From Parabacteroides sp. (GTDB taxonomy: Bacteria; Bacteroidota; Bacteroidia; Bacteroidales; Tannerellaceae): a stretch of 64,000 nt of DNA. This document shows, in pieces, positions 33,140 through 62,237 of the stretch. Below the pieces are notes generated by a model. The model was not told where the DNA came from, did not search any database, and saw only the letters and a list, made by a program, of their open reading frames with translations. The stretch spans positions 19,151 to 83,150 of the forward strand of contig JALFJR010000056.1 of NCBI GenBank assembly GCA_022775005.1, written 5' to 3'. Both the position numbers and the translations under genes were made by a program. The first letter of the stretch is position 1. Each line of letters opens with the position of its first letter.

Positions 33140-34546
33140 TTATCGCCCGAAGTTGAAGATCGGCGATTCCGTACGGGCATGATCCATGATCGTGACTAAC
33201 TCGGTCACCTTGGCGGGATAGACGGCAGCCAAGTTGCGATCCTCATGCGGATCCTCGCGCAAGTTATACAGCTCGACCCTCGTGTCGCCGTTGATCGGCT
33301 GGCGAATCAGTTTCCAGTCGCCCATGCGGATTGCCTGACGGCCCTTCTCCTCATGAAACTCCCAGTATAAAAAAGCATGCTCCTGCTGGCCCTCCTTCCC
33401 CAGCAACGTAGGCAGGTAAGAGATGCCATCGGTGTAGGTGCCCAATTTCACGCCGGTCAGATCGGCCAAGGTAGGCATCAGATCCCAAAAGGCGGCCTGA
33501 TGCCAGCTCTTTACGCCCGAGGGGATTACCCCCGGCAGCCAGGCCAAGAAGGGCACGCGTATGCCGCCCTCATACATCTCGCGCTTGATGCCGCGCAGTG
33601 GGCCGTAACTCTTGAAGAAATCAGGATCGGCTCCTCCTTCCCGATGCGGACCGTTGTCGGAGGTGAAAAAGAGCATCGTGTTCTTGTCTAACCCCAACCG
33701 CTTCAGCTCCTCCATGATCTCGCCCACATACCGGTCGAGACGGGTGATCATCGCGGCGAACGAGGCTTTCGGCTTCAAGGAGGTGTCGTAGCCGCCAATC
33801 CCTTCCTGATAGCCCTGCTCGGAGATATAGGCCTTCTCCTCAAACCGATCCTCATACATCCGATAGAGTTCGTCGTGCGGCAGGTTCAACTCCGCGTGGG
33901 GGATGGTGTAGGTCAGCATCGCGAAGAAAGGCTCCGCCTGATGGGCGCGGATAAAGCGCATCGCCCGTTCGTGGATTAGGTCTTGCGAATAAGCCTGATG
34001 CCCCTTGTCTCTATTCTCCGGGATCTCTACCCGCTGCTCGTTCTCCCACAGATGATCCGGATAATAGGTGTGCGCCTGGCGCTGGCAATTATAACCGAAA
34101 AACTCGTCGAAGCCCATCTTGTTGGGGGTCGATTCCGAGCCGGGCATCCCCAAGCCCCACTTGCCAAAGAGGCCGGTGCGATAGCCGGCGTTCTGCATCA
34201 GGCGGGCAATCGTGTAGGTGTCTTTCCCCATCGGCTCCTGTCCCTCCGGCCTGATCTCCTTGTTTCCCCGGATTTGCGCATGGCCGGTGTGCAAACCGGT
34301 CATGATAGAGCAGCGCGAGGGGGCGCTCACCGGACATCCGGCGTAATGCTGCATAAACTGCATCCCCTCTCGCGCCATGCGATCGAGATGGGGGGTCTGG
34401 ATATAGGGCTGTCCGTAACAGCCCAAATCGCCATACCCCATATCGTCGCACAAGATGAAAATCACATTCATCGGGGCGTTCTCTTCCGCCCCGATAACCT
34501 GCGATCCTAAGCCTATCAAGGCTGTAAGCCAAAAACTCTTCTTCAT
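33140..34546 (-). CDS. Ser-type sulfatase (S1 family, arylsulfatase/GalNAc-6-sulfatase-like)
   Basis: Signal peptide and metal-site motif FILCDDMGYGD. The sulfatase signature PVSAPSRCSIMTG has Ser at the formylglycine position. The start ATG overlaps the stop of the upstream gene (ATGA). Confidence 0.85.
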   Translation of the reverse strand: MKKSFWLTALIGLGSQVIGAEENAPMNVIFILCDDMGYGDLGCYGQPYIQTPHLDRMAREGMQFMQHYAGCPVSAPSRCSIMTGLHTGHAQIRGNKEIRPEGQEPMGKDTYTIARLMQNAGYRTGLFGKWGLGMPGSESTPNKMGFDEFFGYNCQRQAHTYYPDHLWENEQRVEIPENRDKGHQAYSQDLIHERAMRFIRAHQAEPFFAMLTYTIPHAELNLPHDELYRMYEDRFEEKAYISEQGYQEGIGGYDTSLKPKASFAAMITRLDRYVGEIMEELKRLGLDKNTMLFFTSDNGPHREGGADPDFFKSYGPLRGIKREMYEGGIRVPFLAWLPGVIPSGVKSWHQAAFWDLMPTLADLTGVKLGTYTDGISYLPTLLGKEGQQEHAFLYWEFHEEKGRQAIRMGDWKLIRQPINGDTRVELYNLREDPHEDRNLAAVYPAKVTELVTIMDHARTESPIFNFGR

Positions 34547-35379
34547 GCCTGTTCTGTTTCGGATTCTTCGGGCATAACGGGCTGTGTGATCGGTTCCTTT
34601 GCCTTGGCCGCCCGGGTCTGACGGGCTTTCAGCGTAGCCTTCTGCTCGGCGATCAACACGTTCATGCGGTTGATGAAAGGCAGGTAGGCGGTATCGCCCT
34701 CCACTTTCGCCAGCAGGTTCACGACATCTACCAAATGGGTGTAAGTGGCCTCCGCCTCAGTGCGGGTACGCTTCACGGCTCCCACCTCCTTCTCAGAACG
34801 CACATCGGTGCGAGCGGCGACGGCAGCTAAGTAGTTGTTCTCCGCCGTATCCAACGCGTTAAACCACTCCTCGTAATGAATCTTGCTCCGATCCTGGGCC
34901 GGAATGGCCTGAATGTCTTGGATGAGGTTGTGCAGCGCACCACTCTCCTGCACGACTGGCAGATAGGTCAAGTCGCCATACTTGTCGAACTCCGCCTTTA
35001 GTCGCTCCGCGATCGCTGCCAACTCCGGATTCGGGTGCGCGGTCATCGCCTTGATATAGGCGTTGTTGCTCCGCCACAGCCTGTCGCGCAGCTCCTCGTA
35101 GGCTTTTGCCTCCGCTGAATCCGCAGTGCTGCTCTCCAAAGCGACGTCAAACGCCTGGTAAGCCGCCTCAAACGCATTGATGGGCGCCTCCAACATGGCG
35201 TTGATCACCTCGCCAGAGCCAGACAGCGCACTTACACCTCCCTCGACACTGACAACATCAGGGTTTTCCGGCTCTGCCTCTTTCTGCAAATAAGGCAACA
35301 GGCTCATCACTAATTTGAAATAACCAAAAGCCTCCTCGTTGCGGAGACGACTCAGACTTAAAATAGAAATTTGTTCCAT
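34543..35379 (-). CDS. Uncharacterised helical protein, paralog A (family shared with 60930..61736)
   Basis: MEQISILSLSRLRNEEAFGYF... with a C-terminal ...FINRMNVLIAEQ... and an acidic tail PEESETEQA. Start set to ATG 35379 because the -7 element at 35419-35426 lies over the track start 35421. Confidence 0.6.
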   Translation of the reverse strand: MEQISILSLSRLRNEEAFGYFKLVMSLLPYLQKEAEPENPDVVSVEGGVSALSGSGEVINAMLEAPINAFEAAYQAFDVALESSTADSAEAKAYEELRDRLWRSNNAYIKAMTAHPNPELAAIAERLKAEFDKYGDLTYLPVVQESGALHNLIQDIQAIPAQDRSKIHYEEWFNALDTAENNYLAAVAARTDVRSEKEVGAVKRTRTEAEATYTHLVDVVNLLAKVEGDTAYLPFINRMNVLIAEQKATLKARQTRAAKAKEPITQPVMPEESETEQA

Positions 35380-35418
35380 ATCGTTTGTCGTTTTAAAGTT
35401 ACGGCAATATCGCCATGC

Positions 35419-35426
35419 CAAAGATA
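35419..35426 (-). promoter_or_regulatory. -7 element TATCTTTG for paralog A
   Basis: Text caaagata is the reverse complement of TAnnTTTG, 40 nt upstream of ATG 35379. Confidence 0.45.
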
Positions 35427-35482
35427 GGCAAAGACAAGAGATAAAGCACTATTGACAGCTAAGAATCATGCGCGAAACGAGT

Positions 35483-35680
35483 AAAAAACTTTTAGAAGCC
35501 GTTTCGCAAGCTTCGACGGCACGAAAAAACTTTTAGAGGTCGTTTCGCAAGCTACGACGGCACGAAAAAACTTTTATAAGCCGTTTCGCAAGCTACGACG
35601 GCACAAAAAAACTTTTATAAGCCGTTTCGCAAGCTACGACAGCGCAAAAAAACTTTTAGAAGCCGTTTCGCGCATACGGA
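35483..35680. repeat. Tandem array A: about 5 copies of a 41-bp unit AAAAAACTTTTAGAAGCCGTTTCGCAAGCTACGACGGCACG
   Basis: The C that follows each A-tract is at 35489, 35530, 35571, 35612 and 35653, an exact 41-bp period. Each unit contains the imperfect inverted repeat GCCGT(TT)CG-N7-CGACGGC. Confidence 0.9.
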
Positions 35681-35777
35681 GGCGACACGGTGGAAATGTT
35701 AGTGGGTTTTCGGGCGCAAAAATAGCCTGTTCCTTGAATTGTGCGGGGCTTGGGCGCTGATTCGTCGCTATTTTCAT

Positions 35778-35785
35778 TACTTTTG
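35778..35785 (+). promoter_or_regulatory. -7 element TACTTTTG for the C10 peptidase gene
   Basis: Matches TAnnTTTG 49 nt upstream of ATG 35834. The palindrome GGGCAATTTGCCC at 35800-35812 lies in the leader. Confidence 0.45.
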
Positions 35786-35833
35786 CTTCGCAAATTTCCG
35801 GGCAATTTGCCCTTCATAATAAACTTCTAAACA

Positions 35834-38245
35834 ATGAAAAAAAGAGATTACATCTTATGCGCCGCCCTCGGCCTCTTGGCGATCGGGCAAACCTTGGCGC
35901 AACAGCTTTCGCCCTCCCAAGCGAAGGCTAAGGCGGAGGCGTTCTTGCAACAAAAGGCGGGATTGCGCGCGTCGGGCGATTTACAGCTGCTTTTCGCGGT
36001 GACGGACACGACGCAGCTCGACGTGGATGCGACGGGTTCGCTGCGAGCGGCTACTGAGGGTGATGCCTTGCTGTATGCTTTTGGCCGTGCGACGGGTGGC
36101 TACGTGATCGCGGCGGGCGACGAGCGGGCGGAGGCTGTCTTGGGCTATAGCACGACGGGCTCTTTGCGGTCGGATAACCTGCCGGAAGGTATGCGCGGCT
36201 TCCTGCGGCAATATGCGGTGGAGATCGCCCGGGCACAGGAGCAGGATTTGCGCAGCGACACCAAAAATCTCTCTTACAACCCACGGTGGAAGACGATCGA
36301 TCCGCTGATCACCTCGAAGTGGAATCAAACGGATCCCTATAACCGCCAGACGCCAACGATGAACGAGCAACAATGCCTGACCGGTTGCCCGTCTGTGGTG
36401 TTGGCGCAGCTGATGGATTATTATCAGTATCAAAACTGGAAGGTAGCGAAGGAGACTTGGTACTCATCAGCAAATGATGGTTCCGCCTATATCGACCGGG
36501 AGGTGACGGTGCAGTTTACCGACACGGTGGATTGGTCGCTTTTGAAACGCAACTACGGCGTAGACAACTACACCGAGGCGGAGGCCAATGAGGTGGCGAA
36601 GCTGATGAAATACGTCGGGGCGACGATGCACATCAACTACGGCGTGAGTGGCAGTGGGCAGCAGGAGCCTTATATTCTGTGGAATATGCACCGGGTAGCG
36701 GATTACGGCCGGTATGCTTCTCAAGCACAGGCCTGGCAATATGCGTTGCGCGACTGGAGCGAGAAGCTCTATCGGCACTTGGCGGCGAAGCGCCCTGTGG
36801 CTTATGCCAGCGGAGGCGGTGGCCATATCTTCCTGCTCGATGGCTATGCCGGTGAGGGCTATTTTCACTTCAACTGGGGGTGGGGTGGCTACGAGGATGG
36901 CTATTTCCGCTTGACAGCCCTGCTGCCGGAGCAAAAAATGCACTTCGGGCAATTTGCCTATTTCGATGTTTGCCCCTCCGGAATGGAGCCGCTCAACGAG
37001 GAGCCGTTGCTGCTTGAGGATGTGACGTTAGACACGACAGCTGTGGAGCCCCAAATGAAGATCCAACTCTTTACCTACAATCCAGCGCCACAAAGCGGGA
37101 TGCTCTGCTATGCGATCGGGCTCTCTGAGGATAGCACGTTCGTGTCTGACTCGGTGCAATTCACATTGGAGGCAGACAAACAGGTTTCCGAGTGGATCAA
37201 GCTGCCCTTCCCTCAGTATCAAGCGATCGAGCCGGGTGTCTATCCATTGGCTTTCTTCCAACAGATGAGCAACGGATGGCAAGAGGTGATGCAAAGCGCA
37301 TACGTGGAGTTTTATACCTATTTAGTGAAGCGACCGGAGGAGGCGTTTATTGGTTATCTTCCTTATTACGTGGAGATGAAACTGGATGAGTCGTCGAAAG
37401 CGCTCTATTATCAAGGCTGTGCCGATACGCTGTCGCTTCAGGTGACGCACTATGGCACCGGCATGACCTCCAATGCCTTTATACCTGTGCTGTTCAACGA
37501 GACCGATACTTTCCAATTGGCGAAGAGTGACCATTTGTTGGTGGAAGGACTCAACGACCTGCGTCTGCCGATCCGGGTGTCGAATGAGATTCCTGTGGGC
37601 GATTATCGCCTGACAGTGATCAATGATTTTGAAGATAGTTCAGATACCATCTCGGTGTTGGTCAATCCGGGTGTCGAGTTGGTGATCACGGAGGCTCCCG
37701 CCCTTGCCGATACCTTTTTTGTCAATGAAAACAATGTGTTTTCTTTCAAGGTGAAGAACGTGGGTGTGCTCGACTTCAGCGGTACGCTCTCGACCGGTGC
37801 GGTGCAGGATGGCAATCAGCTCTACCTGCGCAGTCAATCGATGCGGATTGCCGTAGGCGAGGAGCAGACCTACACGGGTGGCATCCAATCCTCCGCAAGT
37901 AGCGCAGTGGTGCTCTCTTTGCAGCAAGACAAGGCTTGGCCGCTTGCCTTAGAGTCGGGTGAGTTGTTTGAGAAAAAGGTTGTTTTCATCGACAAACCGA
38001 CGGCTAACGAGGCAATCGCCGTTGCCGGGATAAATATCGCTTGGCAAGGCCAGACGCTCTGCGTGGAGTCAGCCGTGCCGTTGCGGGCTTACCATATATA
38101 TAATGTAAAGGGTGGTGTGGTAGCTGCCGGCTCAGCGAGTGGCAACGAGTTGCGTCTCGATGGCTCCGCATGGCCGACAGGCATCTATTTCGTAGCGATC
38201 GAAACGGCGGATGGAAAGACAATGATCCAAAAGATACGCAAGTAG
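35834..38245 (+). CDS. C10-family (streptopain-like) cysteine peptidase with T9SS C-terminal sorting domain
   Basis: Signal peptide, a propeptide-like N-terminus and WNQTDPYNRQTP. Catalytic Cys is in TGCPSVVLAQLMDYY and His in GGGGHIFLLDGY, followed by FHFNWGWGGYEDGYF. The last ~80 aa (...WPTGIYFVAIETADGKTMIQKIRK) resemble a type A T9SS CTD. Confidence 0.8.
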   Translation: MKKRDYILCAALGLLAIGQTLAQQLSPSQAKAKAEAFLQQKAGLRASGDLQLLFAVTDTTQLDVDATGSLRAATEGDALLYAFGRATGGYVIAAGDERAEAVLGYSTTGSLRSDNLPEGMRGFLRQYAVEIARAQEQDLRSDTKNLSYNPRWKTIDPLITSKWNQTDPYNRQTPTMNEQQCLTGCPSVVLAQLMDYYQYQNWKVAKETWYSSANDGSAYIDREVTVQFTDTVDWSLLKRNYGVDNYTEAEANEVAKLMKYVGATMHINYGVSGSGQQEPYILWNMHRVADYGRYASQAQAWQYALRDWSEKLYRHLAAKRPVAYASGGGGHIFLLDGYAGEGYFHFNWGWGGYEDGYFRLTALLPEQKMHFGQFAYFDVCPSGMEPLNEEPLLLEDVTLDTTAVEPQMKIQLFTYNPAPQSGMLCYAIGLSEDSTFVSDSVQFTLEADKQVSEWIKLPFPQYQAIEPGVYPLAFFQQMSNGWQEVMQSAYVEFYTYLVKRPEEAFIGYLPYYVEMKLDESSKALYYQGCADTLSLQVTHYGTGMTSNAFIPVLFNETDTFQLAKSDHLLVEGLNDLRLPIRVSNEIPVGDYRLTVINDFEDSSDTISVLVNPGVELVITEAPALADTFFVNENNVFSFKVKNVGVLDFSGTLSTGAVQDGNQLYLRSQSMRIAVGEEQTYTGGIQSSASSAVVLSLQQDKAWPLALESGELFEKKVVFIDKPTANEAIAVAGINIAWQGQTLCVESAVPLRAYHIYNVKGGVVAAGSASGNELRLDGSAWPTGIYFVAIETADGKTMIQKIRK

Positions 38246-38266
38246 GGACGCAAGGTCTTTGCGTCC
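38246..38266. terminator. Hairpin between convergent C10 peptidase and DUF5103 genes
   Basis: GGACGCAA-GGTCT-TTGCGTCC, an 8-bp stem. There is no clear U-tract on either strand. Confidence 0.35.
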
Positions 38267-38269
38267 GGA

Positions 38270-39538
38270 TCAGAGCATCGGGATCTCGTTCTTGATGATG
38301 GCCACACCGATCAACCGATCGTAGCGACTACCCATCGGGCGGTAATAGACATAGACGCTGTATTGGTTCTCTGTCTGGAAGAAATCGCCCTCGATGGGAG
38401 CGGTCCGCCCGGTCGTCTCCCCATTGGGCACGAAGAGGTATTGATAGTTGTATAGTCCCTGCTTCAAGAGCACCGACTTCTCGTATTGTCCCGTCTCGGG
38501 ATTAAAGCCCATCCGGCTCTTCTCATCTAATACATTATTATAGATCTCGCTGCTCAAATAGACGTTTCCATCGGGAATTAGCCCCTTTTGCAGCGTGAAA
38601 TGGACGATGTAATAATCGGCCTCCGTGTCCGGATCGCTGCAATTGCTACAGCGCACCAAGTAGCGTCCGTTCTGATCTTGATCGTATTCGTAAGGATGTT
38701 GGTTTCGGGCCTGGTCGGGCATCACCTCGGCGTGATAGTAGGGGTTGTGAAACGAGAAGCCCTCGATGCGCATCCCGTTGTATTTGTTGCTCAGGAACTC
38801 CATGCGGCGGTATTCGTTGCCGGCGGGGAAGATCAGCTGGCGCAGGTTGGTGTAGGCCAACTCATGCTCGCGCATGCCCATGGGCAGCAGGCCGGTCACG
38901 GCGTTGTCACGCCGGTTGTTTTGATAGACCCAGATCTTCAGGTCGCTTTGTGGGTGAGGGATGTCCAACTGCTTATGGTTGATCACGAAGCTGACCTGCT
39001 GATGCGACTGGTTGGTGTCGATGTCGGTGTTGCTGCTGACACGGGCGGCGATGCTGACCATCGGCTCATAGATGGAGAAGCAGGCGGTCAAAACGATCTG
39101 CTCCGGGTGGTCCTCCTCATACACCTGCACGGCGTAGTTGCCTGATACCTTGGGAGCCATATCCTCGTTAGGCAACAACAGGCGGTAGTTGGTGTATTGC
39201 ACCGTCGTACCCATCGAAGTAGCAAAATCCTCGATGGTAGATCCTTGAAAACCGTCGAGGTATTCGATGGGTGAGAGGTTTGACCGCTGCCAGTCGGCAT
39301 CGCAATGGATCAGTTTGTAGGCATAGCGGTTATAGCCGGGGTCGATGGCATCGAAATTGATCTCAATCTGTTGGGGGCTACCTAACTCGATCAACGGATC
39401 GGAGAGGGGCTCGTTGGCTATCCGCACTTGCAACGTCTTGATGTGTTTATCGCTGATGTTGGTGAAATAACGCTCCTGTGCTGTCGTAGTGATGAAAACG
39501 GCACAAAGCGATACGAAAAAGATACTAAATCGTTTCAT
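38270..39538 (-). CDS. DUF5103 / T9SS plug-type protein
   Basis: Signal peptide, then ...IKTLQVRIANEPLSDPLIELGSPQQIEINFDAIDPGYNRYAYKLIHCDADWQRSNLSPIEYLDGF...SGNYAVQVYEE..., which matches my recollection of the DUF5103 family that plugs SprA in T9SS. Confidence 0.55.
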   Translation of the reverse strand: MKRFSIFFVSLCAVFITTTAQERYFTNISDKHIKTLQVRIANEPLSDPLIELGSPQQIEINFDAIDPGYNRYAYKLIHCDADWQRSNLSPIEYLDGFQGSTIEDFATSMGTTVQYTNYRLLLPNEDMAPKVSGNYAVQVYEEDHPEQIVLTACFSIYEPMVSIAARVSSNTDIDTNQSHQQVSFVINHKQLDIPHPQSDLKIWVYQNNRRDNAVTGLLPMGMREHELAYTNLRQLIFPAGNEYRRMEFLSNKYNGMRIEGFSFHNPYYHAEVMPDQARNQHPYEYDQDQNGRYLVRCSNCSDPDTEADYYIVHFTLQKGLIPDGNVYLSSEIYNNVLDEKSRMGFNPETGQYEKSVLLKQGLYNYQYLFVPNGETTGRTAPIEGDFFQTENQYSVYVYYRPMGSRYDRLIGVAIIKNEIPML

Positions 39539-39628
39539 TTTTTCAAGCTCTCTTTTAGACGGCGCAAAATTATGGAATTATTTCGCTTTTTATTTGCCCA
39601 AGGCTACCGCAAAGCATGAAAAATTGTT

Positions 39629-39636
39629 TACTTTTG
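39629..39636 (+). promoter_or_regulatory. -7 element TACTTTTG for the nqr operon
   Basis: Matches TAnnTTTG 35 nt upstream of ATG 39671. Confidence 0.45.
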
Positions 39637-39670
39637 CGGGAAAATTACATATAAACATTTTAGTTGTATC

Positions 39671-41017
39671 ATGGCAAATGTGATTAAGATTAAAAAGGGT
39701 TTAGACATCAATCTGAAAGGCAAGGCTTCGGAAGTGCTGTTAAACGGCGGAAAGAGCGAGACTTATGCGATCGTTCCCGACTTTTATAGCGGCGTGCTTC
39801 CTAAGGTCGTTGCCAAAGTAGGAGACAAAGTCAAAGCCGGTTCTGTATTGATGATCGATAAGAACCGCCCCGAGATCAAGTTCGTTTCGCCGGTGAGTGG
39901 TGAGGTAACAGCCGTTAACCGAGGCGCGAAGCGTAAGGTGCTAAGCATTGTAGTGACGCCGGATGCTCAGATCGAGTATGAGGAGTTCGGAAAGAAGAAC
40001 GTGGCTTCCTTGAAGGGAGACGAGGTGAAGGAGGCGATGTTGAACGCCGGTATGTGGCCGTTCGTTATGCAGCGTCCGTATGACATCGTCGCTACCCCGG
40101 GCGAGACACCGCGCGACATTTTCGTTTCCGCTTTCTATTCGGCTCCGTTGGCTCCTGATTTCAATTACCTTGTGAAGGGGCAAGAGGCCGATTTCCAGAC
40201 GGGTCTGGATGCGTTGGCAAAGTTGACAAGTGGTAAGGTGTATGTGGGTATCCGCAAGGGTTCTGCCGTTCAGCAGGTGAAGGGCGTTGAGCTGGTTGAG
40301 GTTGAGGGCCCGCATCCTGCGGCTAATGCCAGTGTGCTGATCAACCACACGAAACCTATCAACAAAGGTGAGACGGTTTGGACCGTGGATCCGGCTAATG
40401 TGATTATCATCGGTCGTTTGTTCAACAAGGGTATCGCTGACTTCAGCCGCAAGGTGGTGATCACCGGTTCGGAGACGACAGAGCAGGGCTATGTGCAGGC
40501 TATTAGTGGTTGTACGATCAAGAGCCTGATAGGTGGCCGCGTAGCGACTGACACTCATATCCGTATCATCAGCGGTAATGTATTGACCGGTACGAAAGTG
40601 ACTATGGAGGATTATTTGGGCGCTTACGATAATCAGATCACCGTGATCCCTGAGGGTGACGAGACGCACGAGTTTTTGGGCTTCGCCATGCCGCGTACGG
40701 ATCAGTATAGCATGAGCCATAGCTACTTTAGCTGGTTGATGGGCAAGAAGGAATATGTGCTGGATGCCCGCATCAAGGGTGGTAAGCGTGCCATGATCAT
40801 GTCGAATGAATATGACAAGGTGTTCCCGTTGGATATCTATCCGGAGTATCTGTTGAAGGCGATTATCGCGTTTGACATTGATAAGATGGAGAACTTGGGT
40901 ATCTATGAGGTGGCTCCGGAGGACTTCGCGTTATGCGAGTTCGTGGATACCTCCAAGATCGAGTTGCAGAAGATCGTCCGCGACGGTTTGACCCTGTTGT
41001 ATAAGGAAATGAATTAA
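39671..41017 (+). CDS. nqrA: Na+-translocating NADH:quinone oxidoreductase subunit A
   Basis: 448 aa with the MANVIKIKKGLDINLKG opening typical of NqrA. First gene of a six-gene nqr cluster. Confidence 0.9.
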   Translation: MANVIKIKKGLDINLKGKASEVLLNGGKSETYAIVPDFYSGVLPKVVAKVGDKVKAGSVLMIDKNRPEIKFVSPVSGEVTAVNRGAKRKVLSIVVTPDAQIEYEEFGKKNVASLKGDEVKEAMLNAGMWPFVMQRPYDIVATPGETPRDIFVSAFYSAPLAPDFNYLVKGQEADFQTGLDALAKLTSGKVYVGIRKGSAVQQVKGVELVEVEGPHPAANASVLINHTKPINKGETVWTVDPANVIIIGRLFNKGIADFSRKVVITGSETTEQGYVQAISGCTIKSLIGGRVATDTHIRIISGNVLTGTKVTMEDYLGAYDNQITVIPEGDETHEFLGFAMPRTDQYSMSHSYFSWLMGKKEYVLDARIKGGKRAMIMSNEYDKVFPLDIYPEYLLKAIIAFDIDKMENLGIYEVAPEDFALCEFVDTSKIELQKIVRDGLTLLYKEMN

Positions 41018-54678: not shown

Positions 54679-55500
54679 ATGTCAGTAGCAAAAGTAGAAG
54701 ATAATAGAAAGGTGACGACACGTCGCCTGATTGAGATGAAGCAGCGTGGGGAGAAAATCTCCATGCTGACTGCATACGATTATTCAATGGCTAAATTGAT
54801 TGACCAGGCTGGTATGGATGTGATATTGGTAGGTGATTCTGCCTCCAATGTCATGGCGGGTAACGTGACGACCTTGCCGATCACGCTCGACCAGATGATC
54901 TATCATGGTAAATCCGTGGTGAAAGCTGTGAGTCGGGCCTTGGTGGTGGTCGATCTGCCTTTTGGAACCTATCAAGGAAACTCCAAGGAGGCATTGGCCT
55001 CTGCCATTCGTGTGATGAAGGAGACTCATGCGGATTGCATCAAATTGGAGGGAGGCTCTGAGGTGCGTGAGTCTATTGAGCGTATCTTGTGTGCGGGAAT
55101 CCCCGTCATGGGCCATTTAGGTTTGACGCCTCAATCCATCAATAAGTTTGGCACCTATGCGGTGCGTGCGAAAGAGGAGGCGGAGGCGAATAAGCTAATC
55201 GAGGATGCGCATCTGTTGCAGGAGATTGGCTGTTTCAGCTTGGTGTTGGAGAAGATTCCGGCAGTTTTGGCGAAACGGGTTTCCTCTGAGTTGGCGATCC
55301 CTACCATTGGTATTGGCGCGGGTAATGGTACGGATGGACAGGTTTTGGTGATGCACGATATGCTGGGGATCAACCAAGGTTTCTCACCCCGTTTCTTGCG
55401 CCGGTATGCGAATTTAGGCGAGGAGATCACTCATGCGGTTCAAGCCTACATCGAAGATGTGAAAACGGGTGATTTCCCGAATAAGAAAGAACAGTACTAA
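54679..55500 (+). CDS. panB: 3-methyl-2-oxobutanoate hydroxymethyltransferase
   Basis: [38 protein letters not shown]...VGDS...KLEGG... Start moved from 54595 (inside clpC) to ATG 54679. Confidence 0.9.
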
Positions 55501-55617
55501 ATAAAAAATAGGATAGGTTAGCCTTGAAAGAAGATGTTATAAAACATGTTTTGCTTAAATATGGTTAAGTAAACGCACTTTTCTGGGGAATCAGCGTGCT
55601 ATATTGCACGAAGTCCC

Positions 55618-55625
55618 TATATTTG
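55618..55625 (+). promoter_or_regulatory. Orphan -7 element TATATTTG with no downstream CDS
   Basis: Matches TAnnTTTG 118 nt past the panB stop. About 45 nt downstream is the plus-oriented terminator at 55671-55704. Confidence 0.35.
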
Positions 55626-55670
55626 CAACGTGTTTTTCATGGTATTAGATTTAAGGTTAACAATGAGATT

Positions 55671-55704
55671 GGCTGTCCGGGATGGATGGCCTTTTCTTTT
55701 TGTT
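55671..55704 (+). terminator. Plus-strand rho-independent terminator
   Basis: GGCTGTCC-GGGAT-GGATGGCC, an 8-bp stem with two G.T pairs, followed by TTTTCTTTTTGTT. The U-tract is on the plus strand only and overlaps the pmbA stop codon. Confidence 0.6.
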
Positions 55705-57022
55705 ATAACCCACTGAAATCAACCTCCGTGAAGAGGAGAGAGGGAATACGCCAGCTGGAGATCGTACATGGATCATTACCTACGGCTTCCAAATGACTCC
55801 ACAAGGTTAGCATATTTCCGGTGATGTTCATCTCGGAGAGCGGTTGCGTGAGTTTTCCTCGTTCGATCAAGAAGCCCTCCACGCCATACGAGAAGTCGCC
55901 CGTTGAGCTGTTGCAATTACCTCCATTGAATCCCGTGACGAAGATTCCTTTATCCACACCGCTGATCAATCCATCCAGATCTTGTGTGCCTAACTCCATA
56001 GTGAGGACAGAAGGGGAGCTGATGGTTTGCTCCATGCCCATCTTGTTGGCGCTGTAGGTGTCGATATAGTAAGTGCGCAAAACGCCCTTGTCGAAGACCG
56101 TACGCGGCTGCGTGGCTACGCCCTCGTTGTCGAAATAGCGGGCACCAATCGCTCTTGCCTTATGTGGCTCATCACGCAACACGAATTTCTCGCCCATCAC
56201 CTGCTGTCCGATCTTGTCGAGCAAGAAGGAGTTCTTTTGCTGGATGGCTGAACCATAGAGTGCGTTGATTACGGGTGAGAGCAACTGCCCATAATTGCGG
56301 TTATCCACCACCATGGTGTATTTGCCGGAGGCTACTTTGCGCTGTCCGATCTTGCGCAACACGCGTTCGAGGGCTTTCGTGCCGATTCCCTGCTTCGTCA
56401 GGTCGTTGTAGCGGAGCGCCACATCATACCAATAGGATTCCGGGCGGGCATCTCCCTCGCCATGAATGCTGACGCTGGCAGAGAGGCTGAAATAGGAGCT
56501 GGCTGTCTCTCCCTCAAAACCGTTGCTGGCCACCAAGTAGCGATAATCGTCGCCGTCGCTATAGGAAGAGTTTGCGGAAATGATGCGATTGTCTTTCCCC
56601 ATCATCTCGTCGCACACCTGCATGGCGAGTTGCAGCTTATCGTCGGGCTGCACCTTGGCGAAGTCGGGATCCATCAGCTCCAAGCTGGGTTTGTCTCCTT
56701 TGTAATAGAGGCTGGCATCAGGTAGTGTACGGGCTTGGTCCTCCGCCAAGAAGCGAGTGGTGCTGATTCCCTGCTGGATGAAATGCTCCAACTCTTTTTT
56801 GTCTAATCGGTTGGTGGAGTAGGAACCGAAACGTCCATCCACGTAGAGGTGGATAGCCATGCTGTTCTCTGAGGCCTGTTGCAGGCGGTCTATTTTCTTG
56901 TCTCTGATTTCGAATGAGCTGTTCGATCCGTTGTAGATCTGCACGCGAGAAGCTTGACAACCATTTTTCAGCGCATATTCCATAGCCCATTGGGCCAACT
57001 GTTTATTCTCTTTTGTAATCAT
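55703..57022 (-). CDS. pmbA: PmbA/TldE-type metalloprotease subunit (no signal peptide)
   Basis: 439 aa of the TldD/PmbA fold, with the C-terminal ...GFNGGNCNSSTGDFSYGVEGFLIERGK... motif. It begins 1 nt after the tldD stop. Confidence 0.85.
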   Translation of the reverse strand: MITKENKQLAQWAMEYALKNGCQASRVQIYNGSNSSFEIRDKKIDRLQQASENSMAIHLYVDGRFGSYSTNRLDKKELEHFIQQGISTTRFLAEDQARTLPDASLYYKGDKPSLELMDPDFAKVQPDDKLQLAMQVCDEMMGKDNRIISANSSYSDGDDYRYLVASNGFEGETASSYFSLSASVSIHGEGDARPESYWYDVALRYNDLTKQGIGTKALERVLRKIGQRKVASGKYTMVVDNRNYGQLLSPVINALYGSAIQQKNSFLLDKIGQQVMGEKFVLRDEPHKARAIGARYFDNEGVATQPRTVFDKGVLRTYYIDTYSANKMGMEQTISSPSVLTMELGTQDLDGLISGVDKGIFVTGFNGGNCNSSTGDFSYGVEGFLIERGKLTQPLSEMNITGNMLTLWSHLEAVGNDPCTISSWRIPSLLFTEVDFSGL

Positions 57023-57023
57023 A

Positions 57024-58556
57024 TTAGTTCTCTCCTCCTACTGTTAATTTGCTAACTAAGGCCGACGGCATACCGCAGGTGACGGGGCAGGACTGTCCAT
57101 CCTTGCCACAGGTCCAGGTGCCGTTGTCCATTTTGTAATTGTTGCCGACCATCGTGATGTCGGCCAATGCCTTCGGGCCGTTGCCGATGATGTTCACATC
57201 CTTGATCGGTTGTGTCAGTTTACCATTCTCGATTAGGTAGCCATCCTTCACATAGAACGTGAAGTCGCCCGCGCCGATCTGCACCTGTCCGTTGGTGAAG
57301 CTGGAGGCGTAGATGCCCTTCTTCACGGTAGCGATCATCTCCTCCTCTGTGACGTTGCCTGCCTCCATATAGGTCGCTCGCATACGAGGGATCGGGGTCA
57401 TGCGGAAGGATTCACGACGGCCGTTGCCGGTCGGTGCGATGCCATAATACTTTGCGCTGATACGGTCGTGGAGGTAACTGGTCAAGACACCCTCTCTGAC
57501 GATGTAGGTCTTTTGTCCCTCCACACCCTCGTCGTCGATGTTGACAGAGCCGCGGTTGAAGGGGATCGTGCCATCATCCACCACATTGATATGCTCGTTG
57601 CAGATCTTCTTGTTCAGCTGATCGGAGAAGATAGAGGTATTTTTTCGGTTGAAGTCGGCCTCGAATGCGTGTCCGATCGCCTCATGCAGCAGGATGCCGG
57701 AGCCACCTGCGCCCATCACCACCGGCATCTCGCCTCCCTTGGGCTTGATTGCCTGGAAGAGGATCGCCGTCTTATCCACCGCCTCTTGGGCCAACTCGTC
57801 GATCAGGGCGTCGGTCAGGAACTCAGCACCCATGCGGAAGGCACGAGCGGCGTAGGAGTTCTCGATGTGTCCCTTTTCCTCCATGATGCAGACGGCACCC
57901 AGAGTCACCATCGGACGGTAGTCGTAATACATCTCGCCCTCCGAGTTGCAGAAGAAGATGTGCGAGGTGGTATCGCCCAGCGAGGCCTGTACCTTCATCA
58001 CCCGTTGATCCTTAGCGAAGATCTTGTCGTTCAACTGCTGCAGATAGGGCATCTTGTCGTTGATGGCTACCTCGTCCCAGGCGGTCTGCACGTGGTAGAG
58101 GTCGAGGCCCGGCTTCAATTCGCTCAGGTTGACCGGACCGGCTGTCGCGTTTCCATTGGCGATGCGCGCTGCGGTGCGAGCCGCTTTCAGCATCTCCTCA
58201 AGGGTGACGTTTTCCACGTAGGCATATCCGGTTTGATCGCCGGAGAGTACGCGTACGCCCATACCGAAGTCGATGTTCGACGAGGCCCGGTTCACGGCGC
58301 CGTCTTGCAAACCGATGTTGTTCCGATAGGAGTGCTCGAAATAGAGATCGGCGTAGTCGCCTCCCTTTTCTAACGCTGCCGTCAACACTTTCTTCAAATC
58401 GCTTTCGCTCACCTTGAAATAGTTCATGGCGAAAGCAATGCCCGCGGCTTTTGCCGCCGGTCCTGCTTGGCATCCCCCTAAGAACGAGGGAGCAGCTAAT
58501 GTGCTTAACATGACCATGCTGCCTGTTTTGATAAAATCACGTCTATTAAAGTTCAT
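57024..58556 (-). CDS. tldD: TldD-type metalloprotease with twin-arginine (Tat) signal and lipobox
   Basis: The N-terminus MNFNRRDFIKTGSMVMLSTLAAPSFLGGC carries an RRDFIK Tat motif and an LGGC lipobox. The HExxxH zinc site is present (LLHEAIGHAFE). Confidence 0.85.
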   Translation of the reverse strand: MNFNRRDFIKTGSMVMLSTLAAPSFLGGCQAGPAAKAAGIAFAMNYFKVSESDLKKVLTAALEKGGDYADLYFEHSYRNNIGLQDGAVNRASSNIDFGMGVRVLSGDQTGYAYVENVTLEEMLKAARTAARIANGNATAGPVNLSELKPGLDLYHVQTAWDEVAINDKMPYLQQLNDKIFAKDQRVMKVQASLGDTTSHIFFCNSEGEMYYDYRPMVTLGAVCIMEEKGHIENSYAARAFRMGAEFLTDALIDELAQEAVDKTAILFQAIKPKGGEMPVVMGAGGSGILLHEAIGHAFEADFNRKNTSIFSDQLNKKICNEHINVVDDGTIPFNRGSVNIDDEGVEGQKTYIVREGVLTSYLHDRISAKYYGIAPTGNGRRESFRMTPIPRMRATYMEAGNVTEEEMIATVKKGIYASSFTNGQVQIGAGDFTFYVKDGYLIENGKLTQPIKDVNIIGNGPKALADITMVGNNYKMDNGTWTCGKDGQSCPVTCGMPSALVSKLTVGGEN

Positions 58557-59787
58557 ATCGTTTAGTTTTTGCCCATGCCATTACGTTGGCAGGTGGGCGT
58601 TGGTTCAATAACTCTCTTTTCATATAATCCATATAGGGGGCCACATGCTGGAAGAAGCGGTGGTAGCCCTCGCAAAGGTAGTTTAATCCCGGTTCGCCCG
58701 TAGCCGTATGCAGGAAACGATTCTTGGGGCATTCGCCGTTGCAGGCGAAGAGGTAGTCGCACTCCCGGCATTGCGTCGGCAGCTTCTCCTGCTTGTCCAA
58801 ACCGAATTGCTGTTGCCGCGGGCTATACATCATCTCGGTCAACGTCTGTTGGCGGATGTTGCCCAGCTTATAGGCGGGAAAAACGAAATGATCGCAGCTA
58901 TACAGATCCCCGTTGAACTCCATCGCCCCCGCATGCCCGCAATAGCGTGCCAAGGAGCAGATGCCGGGTTGCTCGCCTACCCAGTTGGCTAACGTGGCGT
59001 CGAACAGCTGGATGAAATAGGTGCCTACATCCTCCTTGATCCACTCGTCGAACAGTCCGCAGAGGAAATCGCCCCATTGCGCCGCGTTGATGGAGAAGGG
59101 TGCCAGCCGAATCGCCGCATCCTGCTCCTCCGGTGCGGCCAATAAAGTCCCTTCCGGATGTGCCCCCAGTCGCTCGACGATGGGCGAGAATTGGATGTAG
59201 TGACATTCCAACTCCTTGAAGAAGCGGTAGAACCCGACCGGGTCTGTCACGTTGCGATCGTTCACGACCGCCATCGCGTTGTATTCCACGCCATGTTTTT
59301 TCAGCAATTCAATGCCCTTCCGCACTTTGTAATAGGAGGGAAGCCCCTGTTTGTTTCGTCGGTAATGGTCGTGGATGTCTTGCGGGCCGTCGATGGAGAG
59401 GCCGATCAGGAAATTGTTTTCCCGGAAAAAGCGACACCACTCGTCGGTCAGCAGCGTGCCATTCGTCTGCAAGCAGTTGGCCACCTGCCGACCCTGGGCA
59501 TATTTCCGTTGCAGCGCCAATGCCTTTTGATAGAAGCTGAGCGGACGCATCAGCGGCTCACCGCCATGCCAGGTGAATAGCACCTCGCCCATCGTTTGGC
59601 AAGCCATGTATTGGGCGATGAAGCGCTCTAATAGCTCCTCGCTCAAGATCTGATTCTTGGCCTCGGGGTAGAACTTGCCCTTTTCCTGGTAGTAGCAATA
59701 GTCGCACGCGAGGTTGCAAATCGAACCTACGGGTTTGACCATGACATAGACGGGACGGGCAAACGGAGAAATATAGGTGTTGCTCAT
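58546..59787 (-). CDS. Anaerobic sulfatase-maturating enzyme (radical SAM/SPASM; ChuR/AtsB-like)
   Basis: MSNTYISPFARPVYVMVKPVGSICNLACDYCYY carries the CxxxCxxC radical SAM motif. The C-terminus has SPASM Cys clusters (CRECDYLFACNGECPKNR). It is closely similar to the Bacteroides ChuR sequence as I remember it. Start moved to ATG 59787. Confidence 0.85.
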   Translation of the reverse strand: MSNTYISPFARPVYVMVKPVGSICNLACDYCYYQEKGKFYPEAKNQILSEELLERFIAQYMACQTMGEVLFTWHGGEPLMRPLSFYQKALALQRKYAQGRQVANCLQTNGTLLTDEWCRFFRENNFLIGLSIDGPQDIHDHYRRNKQGLPSYYKVRKGIELLKKHGVEYNAMAVVNDRNVTDPVGFYRFFKELECHYIQFSPIVERLGAHPEGTLLAAPEEQDAAIRLAPFSINAAQWGDFLCGLFDEWIKEDVGTYFIQLFDATLANWVGEQPGICSLARYCGHAGAMEFNGDLYSCDHFVFPAYKLGNIRQQTLTEMMYSPRQQQFGLDKQEKLPTQCRECDYLFACNGECPKNRFLHTATGEPGLNYLCEGYHRFFQHVAPYMDYMKRELLNQRPPANVMAWAKTKRYEL

Positions 59788-59789
59788 GC

Positions 59790-60860
59790 TTATTTCTTCT
59801 TTTTCTTGACTTGTTGATAATCCTTGATGAACCCCTCGGCGATCCATTTGGCCAAGGCCTGCCGGTTGTTGCTGAGGATAAATCGTTGTTGATCGTATGC
59901 GTTTTGAATGTTGCCTAACTCCACGAAGAGCGACGTCGGGGTGGTGTGTCGCAAGACGTAGAGGTTGCGCCCCTCGACCGTCCCCGAGAAGCCTCGTCCC
60001 GGCTGATGATGCCGGTATTTATGGGCGAAGGTCTCTTTCATGGTCTTCGCCAACTGTTTGCTGGCCGCCTTCTGTTGCTGATGATAGAAAAAGACATCCG
60101 TCCGTTGATGCTTGCTCCGGCTGTCGATGTGGAGGAAGATGGCCCGTTTATAGGCCTCTTTATCCTTTTTCGCGAGGGAATTGATCATGTTCACCCGCTG
60201 CTCTAAGCGGCTCACCTGGTTGAAGGGGATCGTGTTGCCCATGCAGGTCTCCCGCTTGCTGTTTTTCAAGAACTGCTCGTCGCGAATGCCATCTTGCGCG
60301 TCTTGGATGATGATATGCACCTTGGCTCCCTTCTCTAAAAGCACGCGAGCCAAGCGAAGCGTGATGTCGTAGGCATACTCATCCTCGTGCAGTTGATGTC
60401 CGTTCATCTTGCCGATCGCGCCGGGATCGGGGCCTCCGTGTCCGCTCACCAAATAGAAGCAAGCCCCCTTCAGTTCAGAGGAGGTCACCTGATAGTTGGC
60501 GAGTGCCTTGCCGAAAAGCGGCTGGTAGTTCTTTCGGGCGGGGGCAGCCGCGGCGGTGGATGGGGCGGCCGCCTTGGCCTTGGTGGAATCCGAGGTCTTT
60601 GTTTTCGGCATGCCCGCTGTTTGGGGCGGCAACGTGTATTTCACGCCTCGCAACAAGCTGTAATTCTTGCCGAACTTGCCTTTGTTCAGTTGGATAAAGG
60701 CTTTACGGCTTTCGGCGCCCTCGCGGCCAAACCGTTTCAGGAATAGCTCGATGCCCTCCCCGTTCTTGGGTGTGGCCTGCTCTTGGGCATGCAGTCCCGT
60801 TCCGCTAAGTACAATCACTAACAGAAGCAGCAGGAGTCTATACTTGTTGAATAGGATCAT
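59790..60860 (-). CDS. N-acetylmuramoyl-L-alanine amidase (Amidase_3 family), secreted
   Basis: Signal peptide, an Ala-rich linker, then an Amidase_3 core (LVSGHGGPDPGAIG...EDEYAYDITLRLA...FLHIDS). Its stop is 2 nt from the anSME start. Confidence 0.8.
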   Translation of the reverse strand: MILFNKYRLLLLLLVIVLSGTGLHAQEQATPKNGEGIELFLKRFGREGAESRKAFIQLNKGKFGKNYSLLRGVKYTLPPQTAGMPKTKTSDSTKAKAAAPSTAAAAPARKNYQPLFGKALANYQVTSSELKGACFYLVSGHGGPDPGAIGKMNGHQLHEDEYAYDITLRLARVLLEKGAKVHIIIQDAQDGIRDEQFLKNSKRETCMGNTIPFNQVSRLEQRVNMINSLAKKDKEAYKRAIFLHIDSRSKHQRTDVFFYHQQQKAASKQLAKTMKETFAHKYRHHQPGRGFSGTVEGRNLYVLRHTTPTSLFVELGNIQNAYDQQRFILSNNRQALAKWIAEGFIKDYQQVKKKKK

Positions 60861-60890
60861 GTTGTTCCACCTCGTTTATTTATTCGCCGC

Positions 60891-60898
60891 CAAAGGTA
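60891..60898 (-). promoter_or_regulatory. -7 element TACCTTTG for the amidase-anSME-tldD-pmbA operon
   Basis: Text caaaggta is the reverse complement of TAnnTTTG, 31 nt upstream of ATG 60860. Confidence 0.45.
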
Positions 60899-60929
60899 AG
60901 TAAAAAAGAGACACCTAAGCAAGGGCTGC

Positions 60930-61736
60930 TTAAGAAACCGTCTCCTCCGGTTCGATGGGCTCTTCCGGGGCATCCTCCGCCGTTTTCCCCTTCGCCCGTG
61001 CGCTCCGTCGGGTGACCGTCTCGATCGTCCGGAGAATCTCCGCGTTCATCCGGTCGATGATCCGCTCTATCCGTGCCGCCTTCTCCGCGTCTCGATCCAT
61101 ATAGGCCGCCGTGAGGTAACTGGCTGTGATCAAATCCGCCAGATCGGCGAAGGACTTCTCCACGACCGGCCGGATCTGCACCATGTTGACGCGGTATGTG
61201 CGGGTTAGCCGCTCGTTTGCCCGTATCGAGACCTCCGTCTGGAAACGCTCTGCGGATTGCCGCAGCTCCACCACCTCATTCGTCAGCCCCAGCGTCTCCA
61301 CATCTGCCGCGTATTTTTCGGTCTGCAGCTTCTCCGTCAGATCCAGCACCATCGCGATGGTCTCTGCGTAGTTTTTCACCATGACTCCCTTATAGGGCGT
61401 GAGCGCGAAATAGACCCGATTGGCCGCCTCGGCGATTTCCGGAACGAAACTCTTCCGGTAGGCACGTATCTGAAAGCTTAACGCGCTGTATCGCTGGTGG
61501 CAATGCTTTTTCGCTGCCTTCACCGTTTCCGTATTGGCATATTTTTGGCTGTTGAGATAGGCCTCATTCTCCCTTTCGAAGGCATCGGCAAAGGCTTTCC
61601 AGTATTCCCAGATTTTTAATTCTCTCGCCATCTCCTGCGTAATACTTTCCAATAAGGAATGAAACAGGCTATAATGCTCGCCATTGCGTACAAACATCAT
61701 GTATTTCCGATCCAATATCTTTTTCATGATTTCCAA
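60930..61736 (-). CDS. Uncharacterised helical protein, paralog B (family shared with 34543..35379)
   Basis: 268 aa. ...FVRNGEHYSLFHSLLESI... aligns with RLRNEEAFGYFKLVMSLL of paralog A, and ...IIDRMNAEILR... aligns with FINRMNVLIAE. Both end in a basic stretch followed by an acidic PEE-rich tail. Confidence 0.6.
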   Translation of the reverse strand: MEIMKKILDRKYMMFVRNGEHYSLFHSLLESITQEMARELKIWEYWKAFADAFERENEAYLNSQKYANTETVKAAKKHCHQRYSALSFQIRAYRKSFVPEIAEAANRVYFALTPYKGVMVKNYAETIAMVLDLTEKLQTEKYAADVETLGLTNEVVELRQSAERFQTEVSIRANERLTRTYRVNMVQIRPVVEKSFADLADLITASYLTAAYMDRDAEKAARIERIIDRMNAEILRTIETVTRRSARAKGKTAEDAPEEPIEPEETVS

Positions 61737-61793
61737 ATACTATACAGGTTCAACAATGATTAATTGAAAACTTTCTAAAAAGCTTTTCAGCTA

Positions 61794-61801
61794 CAAATAT
61801 A
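61794..61801 (-). promoter_or_regulatory. -7 element TATATTTG for paralog B
   Basis: Text caaatata is the reverse complement of TAnnTTTG, 58 nt upstream of ATG 61736. The first repeat of array B starts 13 nt further upstream. Confidence 0.45.
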
Positions 61802-61813
61802 ATTATTTTATTC

Positions 61814-62100
61814 TTTCATATAATTATGAAAATGCAAATAAGAACTATTTTATAATTTCATACGATTATGAAAGTATAAATAAGAATTATTTCAAGCTTT
61901 CATACGATTATGAAAGTATAAACAAATACTATTTTGGAATTTCATATTATTATGAAAGTATAAAAAAAACTATTTTAGACTTTCATACTATTATGAAAAT
62001 ATAAAAAAGAACTATTTCATAATTTCATACCATTATGAAATCATGAATAAGAAATAGTTCATACTTTCATACTATTATGAAAGCATGAATAAGAATTTTA
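61814..62100. repeat. Tandem array B: 7 copies of a 42-bp unit carrying the palindrome TTTCATA-N4-TATGAAA
   Basis: TTTCATA starts at 61814, 61856, 61898, 61940, 61981, 62023 and 62065, a period of 42, 42, 42, 41, 42 and 42 bp. The linker consensus is AAAtAAGAACTATTTTAnAa. Confidence 0.9.
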
Positions 62101-62237
62101 GGGATGCAACGTGTTGCGTTATTTCCCTCACATAAAATGCAAATGATCATTTGGACAACATTAAATTTATTTTTTACCTTTACCGCATTGAAACCACAAT
62201 GAAAGAAGCACATTATCCTATTATTATAGATACAATT

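Follow-up and report, generated by a model that had tools for sequence, protein, structure and literature searches.

We analysed a 64,000-nucleotide stretch of DNA from Parabacteroides sp. (assembly GCA_022775005.1, contig JALFJR010000056.1, positions 19,151 to 83,150 of the forward strand; hereafter the window), in which two minus-strand genes of the DUF6261 family, gene A (34543..35379) and gene B (60930..61727), are each preceded by an array of tandem palindromic repeats. The 41-bp and 42-bp arrays that an original prediction from the sequence of this stretch had placed upstream of the two genes were both recovered by Tandem Repeats Finder (TRF), array A at 35483-35671 (period 41, 4.6 copies, 93% matches, score 315) and array B at 61804-62095 (period 42, 7.0 copies, 82% matches, score 318). 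Both occupy divergent intergenic regions 5' of their minus-strand genes, and the window has just one further tandem repeat whose period is at least 20 bp and whose copy number is at least three, a 22-bp unit present four times at 603-691. As a feature, array A spans 35468..35680 and comprises about five 41-bp units, each of which pairs the dyad GCCGTTTCG/CGACGGC with a second, AT-rich one, AAAAAACTTTT. Its palindrome, GCCGTTTCGCAAGCTACGACGGC, occurs four times with at most one mismatch, at 35498, 35539, 35580 and 35621 (41 bp apart), and is confined to the array within the 64 kb, where zero matches would be expected by chance. Array B (61804..62095) comprises seven 42-bp units of the form CTTTCATA-N4-TATGAAAG, with flanks that stretch the dyad to approximately 16 bp; its palindrome, CTTTCATANNNNTATGAAAG, occurs seven times between 61813 and 62083 at a spacing of 41-42 bp, with one unrelated weak match elsewhere in the window against 0.01 expected by chance. 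The two palindromes are unrelated and recur at a period of about four helical turns, with one array before each paralogue, as had been proposed. The linker, which was thought to be shared by the two arrays, is AT-rich in both and is itself a second, weaker dyad, but it does not constitute a family-wide scaffold: in many arrays of the family the linker is a GC-containing second palindrome, e.g. ATCCTGCAGGAT, and only the period and the palindrome layout are conserved throughout.

Between each array and its gene lies a predicted Bacteroides-type -7 box (TAnnTTTG). That of gene A, TATCTTTG (35419..35426, minus strand), begins 47 nt before the ATG, while that of gene B, TATATTTG (61794..61801, minus strand), begins 74 nt before the ATG at 61727 and abuts array B; the homologous locus L050 (homologous loci are designated by L and a number) has a -7 box at the same position as that of gene B. 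Arrays of the B type, with seven to eight units, recur at loci L045 and L050, whose encoded proteins are 78-79% identical. The ATG start of gene A, which encodes 278 residues, is consistent with its homologues. For gene B, the N-termini of homologues P0124 and P0142 make the ATG at 61727 (MKKILDRKY...) a more likely start than the alternative TTG at 61736. The gene B start region, 61715-61743 (GAAATCATGAAAAAG), is 79% complementary to the array unit at 62027-62055, and the array B half-site TATGAAA includes ATGAAA, the Met-Lys start of the gene; this complementarity may be a coincidence or may reflect an extra operator half-site over the start codon.

When compared with Pfam PF19775 (DUF6261), for which the cut-off is 27 bits, protein A scored 103.3 bits (E = 1.6e-29) and protein B, a member of a second subfamily, 78.8 bits (E = 5.6e-22), in line with their proposed paralogy. 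DUF6261 was the sole significant Pfam match of both proteins, and a database protein identical to A is named 'DUF6261 family protein [Parabacteroides sp.]'. A BLASTP comparison of protein A with protein B was not significant (E = 23), and the two are, by these comparisons, homologous at the profile level only. The N-terminal RN-E..F and C-terminal I-RMN motifs that had been noted in both proteins match the near-invariant DUF6261 columns E16, N240, I243 and R253. The description of the two proteins as orphans has to be abandoned, as a DUF6261 profile search of 1.84 billion cluster representatives returned 5,965 members at E <= 0.001 and 3,690 at E <= 1e-10, with clusters counted at 50% identity. 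In the AlphaFold2 model (predicted local distance difference test score, pLDDT, 81.6; predicted template modelling score, pTM, 0.54) protein A forms an elongated bundle made up entirely of helices; its acidic insert at residues 34-58 is disordered, and so is the C-terminal tail, which is basic and then acidic. NCBIfam gave no functional lead.

Loci encoding DUF6261 proteins were gathered by searching collections of genomes, metagenomes, viruses and plasmids and by looking up exact proteins, the metagenome scan contributing five loci; the combined alignment of the two subfamilies was too divergent for locus searching, and the subfamilies were searched separately. The census comprised 64 loci with at least 230 nt 5' of the start codon, which fell into 32 upstream-sequence clusters and came from Parabacteroides, Bacteroides, Phocaeicola, Prevotella, Alistipes and Paludibacteraceae. 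This revealed that the best autocorrelation of the upstream sequence lies at a lag of 40-42 or its double in 31 of the 32 clusters, the exception being L036, in which just one or two units are recognisable. When 480-bp windows from the 64-kb window were used as a control, lags of 40-42 or 80-84 were best in 21 of 259 (8%, the chance rate), and none of these reached 0.6 identity. Looking from the arrays to the genes, TRF identified 56 arrays of period 40-42 in 438 kb of collected DNA, 50 of which have a DUF6261 N-terminus within 260 nt downstream; the remaining six are accounted for by L029, where the second paralogue is frameshifted, by L035, where the array lies at the end of the locus, and by four loci in which they form the distal part of a long L052-type array. 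Other tandem repeats with a period of at least 20 are almost absent from the same 438 kb. The association is present in both subfamilies and includes a Prevotella nigrescens member, 22% identical to protein A, with a 41-bp array of 3.6 copies approximately 105 bp before its start codon. The DUF6261 paralogues of one genome always have different array types: two in the window, three in Parabacteroides sp. An277 and three or four in one Bacteroides metagenome-assembled genome (MAG). The check for arrays at further paralogues that the original prediction had called for therefore gave a clear positive, and we are confident that, in Bacteroidales of the gut and the mouth, DUF6261 genes are almost always preceded, just upstream of the promoter, by three to nine locus-specific palindromes spaced 40-42 bp apart. 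The literature that we searched contains no description of these arrays, in keeping with the earlier statement that no such system had been described, and where DUF6261 is mentioned there, this is unrelated to them.

Several of these loci carry further repeats or paralogues. L029 (Parabacteroides sp. An277) has tandem DUF6261 paralogues at 4001-4729 and 5338-6165, with a separate array type for each; that of the second lies at 5107-5236, and the second gene is apparently frameshifted near its 5' end. In L032 a second DUF6261 5' fragment is found approximately 1.84 kb downstream. L042 (Prevotella nigrescens, NZ_CP082843) contains, at 2189-2584, a 120-bp tandem repeat of 3.3 copies (98% matches) just 5' of the DUF6261 array and inside an annotated hypothetical gene, and its annotated DUF6261 start (locus position 2839) overlaps the 41-bp array, an ATG at 2979 being the more likely start. 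Metagenome contigs often start or end inside arrays (L037 and L043, both at position 1, and several short contigs); the arrays seem to break short-read assemblies, such that surveys of short contigs seem to under-count them.

Upstream regions stacked at their own period revealed units built from palindromes. A GC-rich palindrome, P1 (e.g. GTCCCCAGCGGGGAC, CTGTCGATTCAGTCGACAG or GTCCGAGnnCTCGGAC), is frequently joined by a second, P2 (e.g. AATCCTGCAGGATT, TTTCCGnnCGGAAA or CTAAAAAAGTTTTTAG), and the second-best dyad is half a period (20-21 bp) away from the first in 14 of 24 arrays. Some arrays consist of perfect loop-less palindromes of 8-14 bp, for example AATCCTGCAGGATT and, at L046, the 8-bp GAATATTC. 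Young arrays are homogeneous, with 93-98% identity between units, whereas old arrays have kept the exact period and the palindrome while the remainder has drifted. In L052, nine units that are merely 66% alike are spaced at exactly 41 bp throughout; L046 has seven GGAATATTC sites at approximately 42 bp with diverged linkers, and L047 six TTTCGC-N5-GCGAAA sites spaced 40 bp apart. Copy number varies between strains, with 4.6 or 5.6 copies of the A type and 2.7 to 5.7 of the L007 type, and about seven copies of the A-type unit are found at L064, whose protein is 85% identical to protein A and resembles it at the N-terminus, and which lies in other genomic surroundings. Related arrays also differ by compensatory changes in the arms, GCCG/CGGC in A versus GGTC/GACC in L007. 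Selection thus appears to act on the period and the palindrome rather than on the sequence of the unit. Directly 5' of the arrays at L013 (3261-3740), L014 (3252-3725) and L027 (1151-1879) there are small co-directional open reading frames (ORFs) with an acidic ...G-S-F-G tail, and in L013 and L014 the most distal array unit doubles as a canonical-looking terminator of the upstream ORF (12-bp stem, then T-run). The distances of dyads to the -7 box cluster loosely near integral helical turns, an observation that we do not use as evidence because dyad assignment is uncertain and the loci are non-independent.

The position of the promoter bears on whether the arrays act as DNA or as RNA. In a motif-based search, 18 of 22 loci had a sense TAnnTTTG box between the array and the ATG, at a distance of 31-101 nt from the latter; a sense box 5' of the array was found in one of the 22, array A, where it lies 45 nt upstream. 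As the promoter boxes sit between array and gene, the arrays end at about the -33 region. Neither A nor B has a terminator-like hairpin between the array and the start codon. Among stem positions that depart from Watson-Crick pairing on the gene strand, G:T (73) and A:C (86) showed no strand asymmetry, although this test is crude since some arrays drift in register. Loop-less palindromes are incapable of folding as RNA hairpins, and Rfam yielded no match to an array, either at gathering thresholds over the whole window or in an E-value search of both arrays. Taken together, the absence of strand bias, the loop-less palindromes, the lack of an Rfam match and the position of the promoter favour an array that acts as double-stranded DNA, and a structured RNA was rejected as a candidate on the Rfam and asymmetry results. 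Of the two readings first offered for arrays A and B, phased operator arrays with locus-specific recognition are accordingly the better supported, by the core promoter between array and gene, the lack of strand bias and the loop-less palindromes, and structured repeats with co-varying stems the less so.

The arrays also vary together with the protein that they precede. Over 127 diverse DUF6261 representatives the N-terminal pattern is M-K-K-I-x-x-h-x-h-x-x-L-R-x-E-E, in which the x positions are among the most variable of the protein (high entropy at positions 5, 6, 8, 10 and 11). In gene A the hypervariable segment corresponds to codons 4-11 (ISILSLSR; 35347..35370, minus strand) and changes together with the array type: two discrete N-terminal alleles, SILSLS (as in A) and YVFNPI (as in the L007-type protein), dominate among approximately 90 close homologues of A, with no intermediates. 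Comparison of A with L007 revealed a protein that is 88% identical and a promoter and untranslated region (UTR) that are 97% identical, while array arms and codons 4-11 both differ. L064, only 85% identical to A overall and in another genomic context, has an A-like N-terminus (SNLSLG) and an A-type array; L066 combines an L007-like N-terminus (KFFSPV) with an L007-like array, and L067 has the N-terminus AAFGLA and a third array type. More broadly, xT(L/F)N(V/I)KQL N-termini pair with GTCCCC-N3-GGGGAC in four upstream-sequence clusters (L016-type, L020, L058/L059 and L063), with 57-73% identity among the proteins compared (L016/L018/L029, L020 and L058) and differing linkers, and the N-terminus LS(I/A)LNIARL pairs with GTCGAnTCAGTCGAC. 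In these comparisons the array type tracks the hypervariable N-terminal 11 residues.

DUF6261 genes are cis-trans modules that consist of an array, a predicted Bacteroides sigma-A promoter, a short leader and the gene. We hypothesize, in a reading that falls only somewhat short of probable, that the arrays are double-stranded phased operators bound by a locus-specific dimer, which would probably be the DUF6261 protein itself. The array would provide operator or enhancer-like sites phased on one face of the helix, 40-42 bp being about four turns of B-DNA, and these would be occupied cooperatively by a symmetric (dimeric), sequence-specific protein. The most economical binder would be DUF6261, because the palindrome differs from locus to locus and no protein other than the gene's own product is specific to the locus. 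Its N-terminal segment (I-x-x-h-x-h-x-x-L-R-x-E-E) would contribute the DNA specificity. By binding, the protein would control the neighbouring promoter of its own gene and build a nucleoprotein complex specific to itself, in the way that plasmid centromere-binding adaptors do on their upstream arrays of repeats, and the gain or loss of repeats would tune the response. A more far-reaching version, less likely than not but with a substantial chance of being right, is that DUF6261 constitutes a previously unrecognised class of sequence-specific DNA-binding proteins whose hypervariable N-terminus reads the palindrome, forming orthogonal, self-specific complexes with specificity cassettes that are exchanged among paralogues and strains of gut Bacteroidales. 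Assembled cooperatively on 41-42-bp-phased arrays, these complexes would then correspond, on the chromosome, to the centromere/adaptor pairs of plasmids, or would constitute an autoregulatory bistable switch.

Two groups of observations weigh against binding of the array by DUF6261. The first concerns the protein. The modelled fold of protein A has no recognisable DNA-binding domain and gives no independent support for DNA binding: Foldseek searches of PDB and BFVD returned nothing at E <= 0.001, the best matches being McpS/TorS sensor bundles at a template modelling (TM) score of approximately 0.3, and a PDB sequence-profile search, PADLOC and PHROGs gave no match. The N-terminal 41-46 residues searched alone matched no Pfam family, ribbon-helix-helix families included. 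The N-terminal pattern MKKIxTIxLxxL presumably resembles CopG-type strands, a likeness that no Pfam match backs and that we offer as speculation only; an N-terminal strand may form only in the dimer. Furthermore, a protein that regulates solely itself needs a further function. The second group concerns inheritance. The pairs L017/L018, L029/L031 and L059/L062 are 95-100% identical from coding sequence (CDS) nt +33 to +36 onwards and unrelated upstream, the replaced block comprising the array, the promoter, the leader and the first 11 codons, and in all three independent pairs the breakpoint is the conserved L-R-x-E-E box, CTCCGCACCGAAGA. L059 and L062 represent one chromosomal locus in related strains. 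The shared breakpoints indicate that the array and the N-terminal codons are inherited as a cassette, which fits a matched pair of site and reader. However, the correlation of N-terminus and array can in large part be explained by physical linkage alone: downstream of the array, homology first becomes available at the L-R-x-E-E box, and only the A/L007/L064/L066 set, a single lineage, has a conserved promoter that separates the array from the N-terminus.

An alternative that we consider unlikely is that the arrays are cis-acting DNA not read by DUF6261, which through cruciform formation, absorption of supercoils, curvature or a shape-reading host nucleoid protein insulate or boost the promoter or stop read-through from upstream. 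Symmetry conserved without conservation of sequence would suit such a role, as would the terminator-like distal units of L013 and L014, the phased A/T tracts of A, B, L007 and L067, and the lack of a recognisable DNA-binding domain in the protein. However, many arms are only 4-7 bp long or form 8-bp loop-less palindromes such as that of L046, for which cruciform extrusion is not expected, and the GC-rich arrays L016 and L018 have no A-tracts. The palindrome is kept while linkers drift in old arrays, which points to sequence-specific rather than shape-only reading, and a generic insulator would neither be limited to one gene family nor track the N-terminus of its protein.

It is very unlikely, in our judgement, that transcription of the array yields a structured repeat RNA which acts as partner of the protein, as in type III toxin-antitoxin systems, with units that are cut and that bind and neutralise the gene product. 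Criteria for such systems include a promoter before the tandem array and a short palindromic terminator between array and toxin gene, with a repeat length characteristic of the family and variable sequence and copy number (PMC3401426). DUF6261 loci resemble ToxIN, CptIN and TenpIN in having a tandem array directly upstream of a protein gene, with a conserved period, a sequence that differs between homologues and a variable copy number; several lie among restriction-modification or nuclease/helicase-like genes (both judged from N-terminal sequences only) or ParE genes (a Pfam assignment), and array A has its single upstream sense box. They differ in that the promoter box lies between array and gene in 18 of 22 loci and no terminator follows array A or B, in that the units are palindromes, some loop-less, with no strand bias in the stem mismatches and no Rfam match, and in that DUF6261 is not a ToxN/AbiQ, CptN or TenpN endoribonuclease and matches no PADLOC model. 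Membership in type III toxin-antitoxin systems was rejected on promoter position, the absent terminator and protein family.

We assign a similarly small probability to a mobile 5' cassette of array and first 11 codons, in which slippage-prone repeats hitch-hike with promoter cassettes that are reshuffled between paralogues and vary expression or antigenic type and the palindromes are not binding sites. This would account for the sharp common breakpoints in the three pairs above, for the discrete N-terminal alleles of close homologues, and for copy numbers that vary between strains and young arrays with homogenised units. Neutral slippage nevertheless fails to explain the exact 40-42-bp period and the palindromes where units have diverged to 55-66% identity, or why these persist at loci whose proteins are just 20% identical. 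Among the neighbours examined, DUF6261 loci have no recombinase that is regularly adjacent, and cassette exchange is compatible with, and would be favoured by, a matched pair of protein and site.

Two further candidates were rejected: a dispersed repeat resembling repetitive extragenic palindromes (REP), bacterial interspersed mosaic elements (BIMEs) or miniature inverted-repeat transposable elements (MITEs), one of the outcomes that the original prediction had named as arguing against it, as units are locus-specific in the 64 kb and 40-42-bp arrays in the 438 kb are tied to DUF6261 genes; and a CRISPR array, as the whole 41-42-bp unit repeats without unique spacers and Rfam identified no CRISPR repeat family. 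For an inverton the observations point both ways. Array A is bracketed by a perfect 12-bp inverted repeat, ATGCGCGAAACG / CGTTTCGCGCAT, at 35468-35479 / 35664-35675, but this is part of the array's own dyad lattice and the promoter, with its -7 box at 35419-35426, lies outside it; no inverted-orientation variants of array A were present in the six strain loci L001-L006.

The nearest known analogues of the arrays are the plasmid centromere/operator arrays (sopC-SopB, ParR-parC and TubR-tubC), of which the DUF6261 system is not a member. The sopC site of the F plasmid consists of twelve 43-bp units, each with a 16-bp inverted-repeat motif bound by SopB (PMC3177203). DUF6261 arrays have nearly the same unit size and layout, that is, direct repeats that each contain an inverted repeat and lie beside the gene of the presumed binder, although for DUF6261 we infer the binding. 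Partition loci of types Ib, II and III, for instance those of the ParR-parC type, have an upstream array that overlaps the promoter and through which they are autoregulated, and paralogous systems diverge in specificity. Partition loci have a ParA, ParM or TubZ nucleoside triphosphatase partner, whereas none was found among the DUF6261 neighbours examined, and DUF6261 loci, unlike those of plasmids, are chromosomal with several per genome. Partition adaptors are ParB-type helix-turn-helix, ribbon-helix-helix or winged-helix proteins, while the DUF6261 helical bundle showed no such similarity in Foldseek searches of PDB and BFVD or in Pfam searches with N-terminal fragments. BIMEs have alternating palindromic arms, two kinds of short linker and variable copy number, and DUF6261 arrays are alike in these respects; the REP/BIME elements of enterobacteria, however, are one sequence family dispersed over hundreds of sites, most of them at gene 3' ends, whereas DUF6261 arrays are locus-specific and found only 5' of the promoters of one family. 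Iterons, lambda O sites and ARG boxes are repeated binding sites at integral helical turns beside the gene of their binder, and are autoregulatory. Plasmid iterons have periods of 17-22 bp, lie at a replication origin and are bound by a winged-helix Rep, in contrast to the 40-42-bp arrays of DUF6261, which have no origin features and whose presumed binder has an unrelated fold. The DUF6261 arrays would represent a phased operator or centromere-like arrangement, beside the gene of the presumed binder, that is apparently undescribed.

DUF6261 is a large family without known function, often present in several copies per genome in the dominant gut and oral Bacteroidales, for which the array rule provides a testable handle in the form of a delimited DNA element and a candidate segment for specificity. 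Should the protein indeed read its own array, the family would amount to a naturally occurring set of orthogonal protein/operator pairs that Bacteroides synthetic biology could use, and would exemplify rapid co-evolution of specificity. With their strain-variable copy number the arrays could serve as strain markers, and they can be wrongly taken for CRISPR-like repeats.

The function of DUF6261 should not be read from the sulfatase genes near A and B. Gene A does overlap the start of a sulfatase gene (PF00884, with SAPSR in place of CxPxR, i.e. Ser-type) through ATGA, and gene B does precede, in the order B, amidase, radical-SAM (S-adenosylmethionine)/SPASM protein, TldD, an operon whose radical-SAM/SPASM gene resembles that of the anaerobic sulfatase-maturating enzyme (anSME), as had been pointed out; the proposed sulfatase linkage is nevertheless specific to this lineage. 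The closest relatives of A adjoin MFS (major facilitator superfamily)/Mur-ligase, esterase or glycosyltransferase genes and those of B adjoin DUF4251/AraC or EAL-domain genes, while BlaR-like, ParE, restriction-modification and other genes neighbour further homologues, close and distant, with neighbours that differ at every locus. As homologues of both A (L007/L010, L064, L066 and L067) and B (L050, L051, L046 and L047) have unrelated neighbours, the link was rejected, and by this comparison of gene neighbourhoods is coincidental. A different kind of shared surrounding was seen at L017, L018, L023, L024, L048 and L049, in which a near-identical DUF6261 gene and more than 4 kb of downstream DNA are shared at 95-98% identity. 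This DNA encodes an ABC (ATP-binding cassette) transporter and a putative methyltransferase (judged from N-terminal sequence only), and it occurs in MAGs classified as Prevotella, Alistipes or Bacteroides as well as on two 'viral' contigs of IMG/VR, which suggests that the segment is carried on a mobile element in chicken-gut Bacteroidales.

A few minor features of the window remain. Inside the gene A CDS, a terminator-like hairpin and U-run (GTCTCCGCAACGAGGAGGC TTTTGG) lies at 35330-35348 on the minus strand, covering codons 11-19 exactly at the L-R-N-E-E box; it may simply follow from the codons of the motif, and the equivalent of this box is the recombination breakpoint site at other loci. 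The gene divergent from array B (62196-62900, plus strand) has no Pfam match at E <= 1e-5 and appears esterase-like by eye. A match to the Bacteroidetes FopS small RNA (sRNA) family (RF04319), unrelated to the arrays, was found by Rfam at 55630-55703 on the plus strand with 74.8 bits against a gathering score of 56. Finally, the 22-bp repeat near the start of the window extends over 603-711 (plus strand) as four to five direct copies of AAAACATTGCCCATTGTTTTC, approximately 115 bp upstream of an ORF at 826-2283 (plus strand); it is the sole control region with strong periodicity and may be a phased regulator site of another kind.

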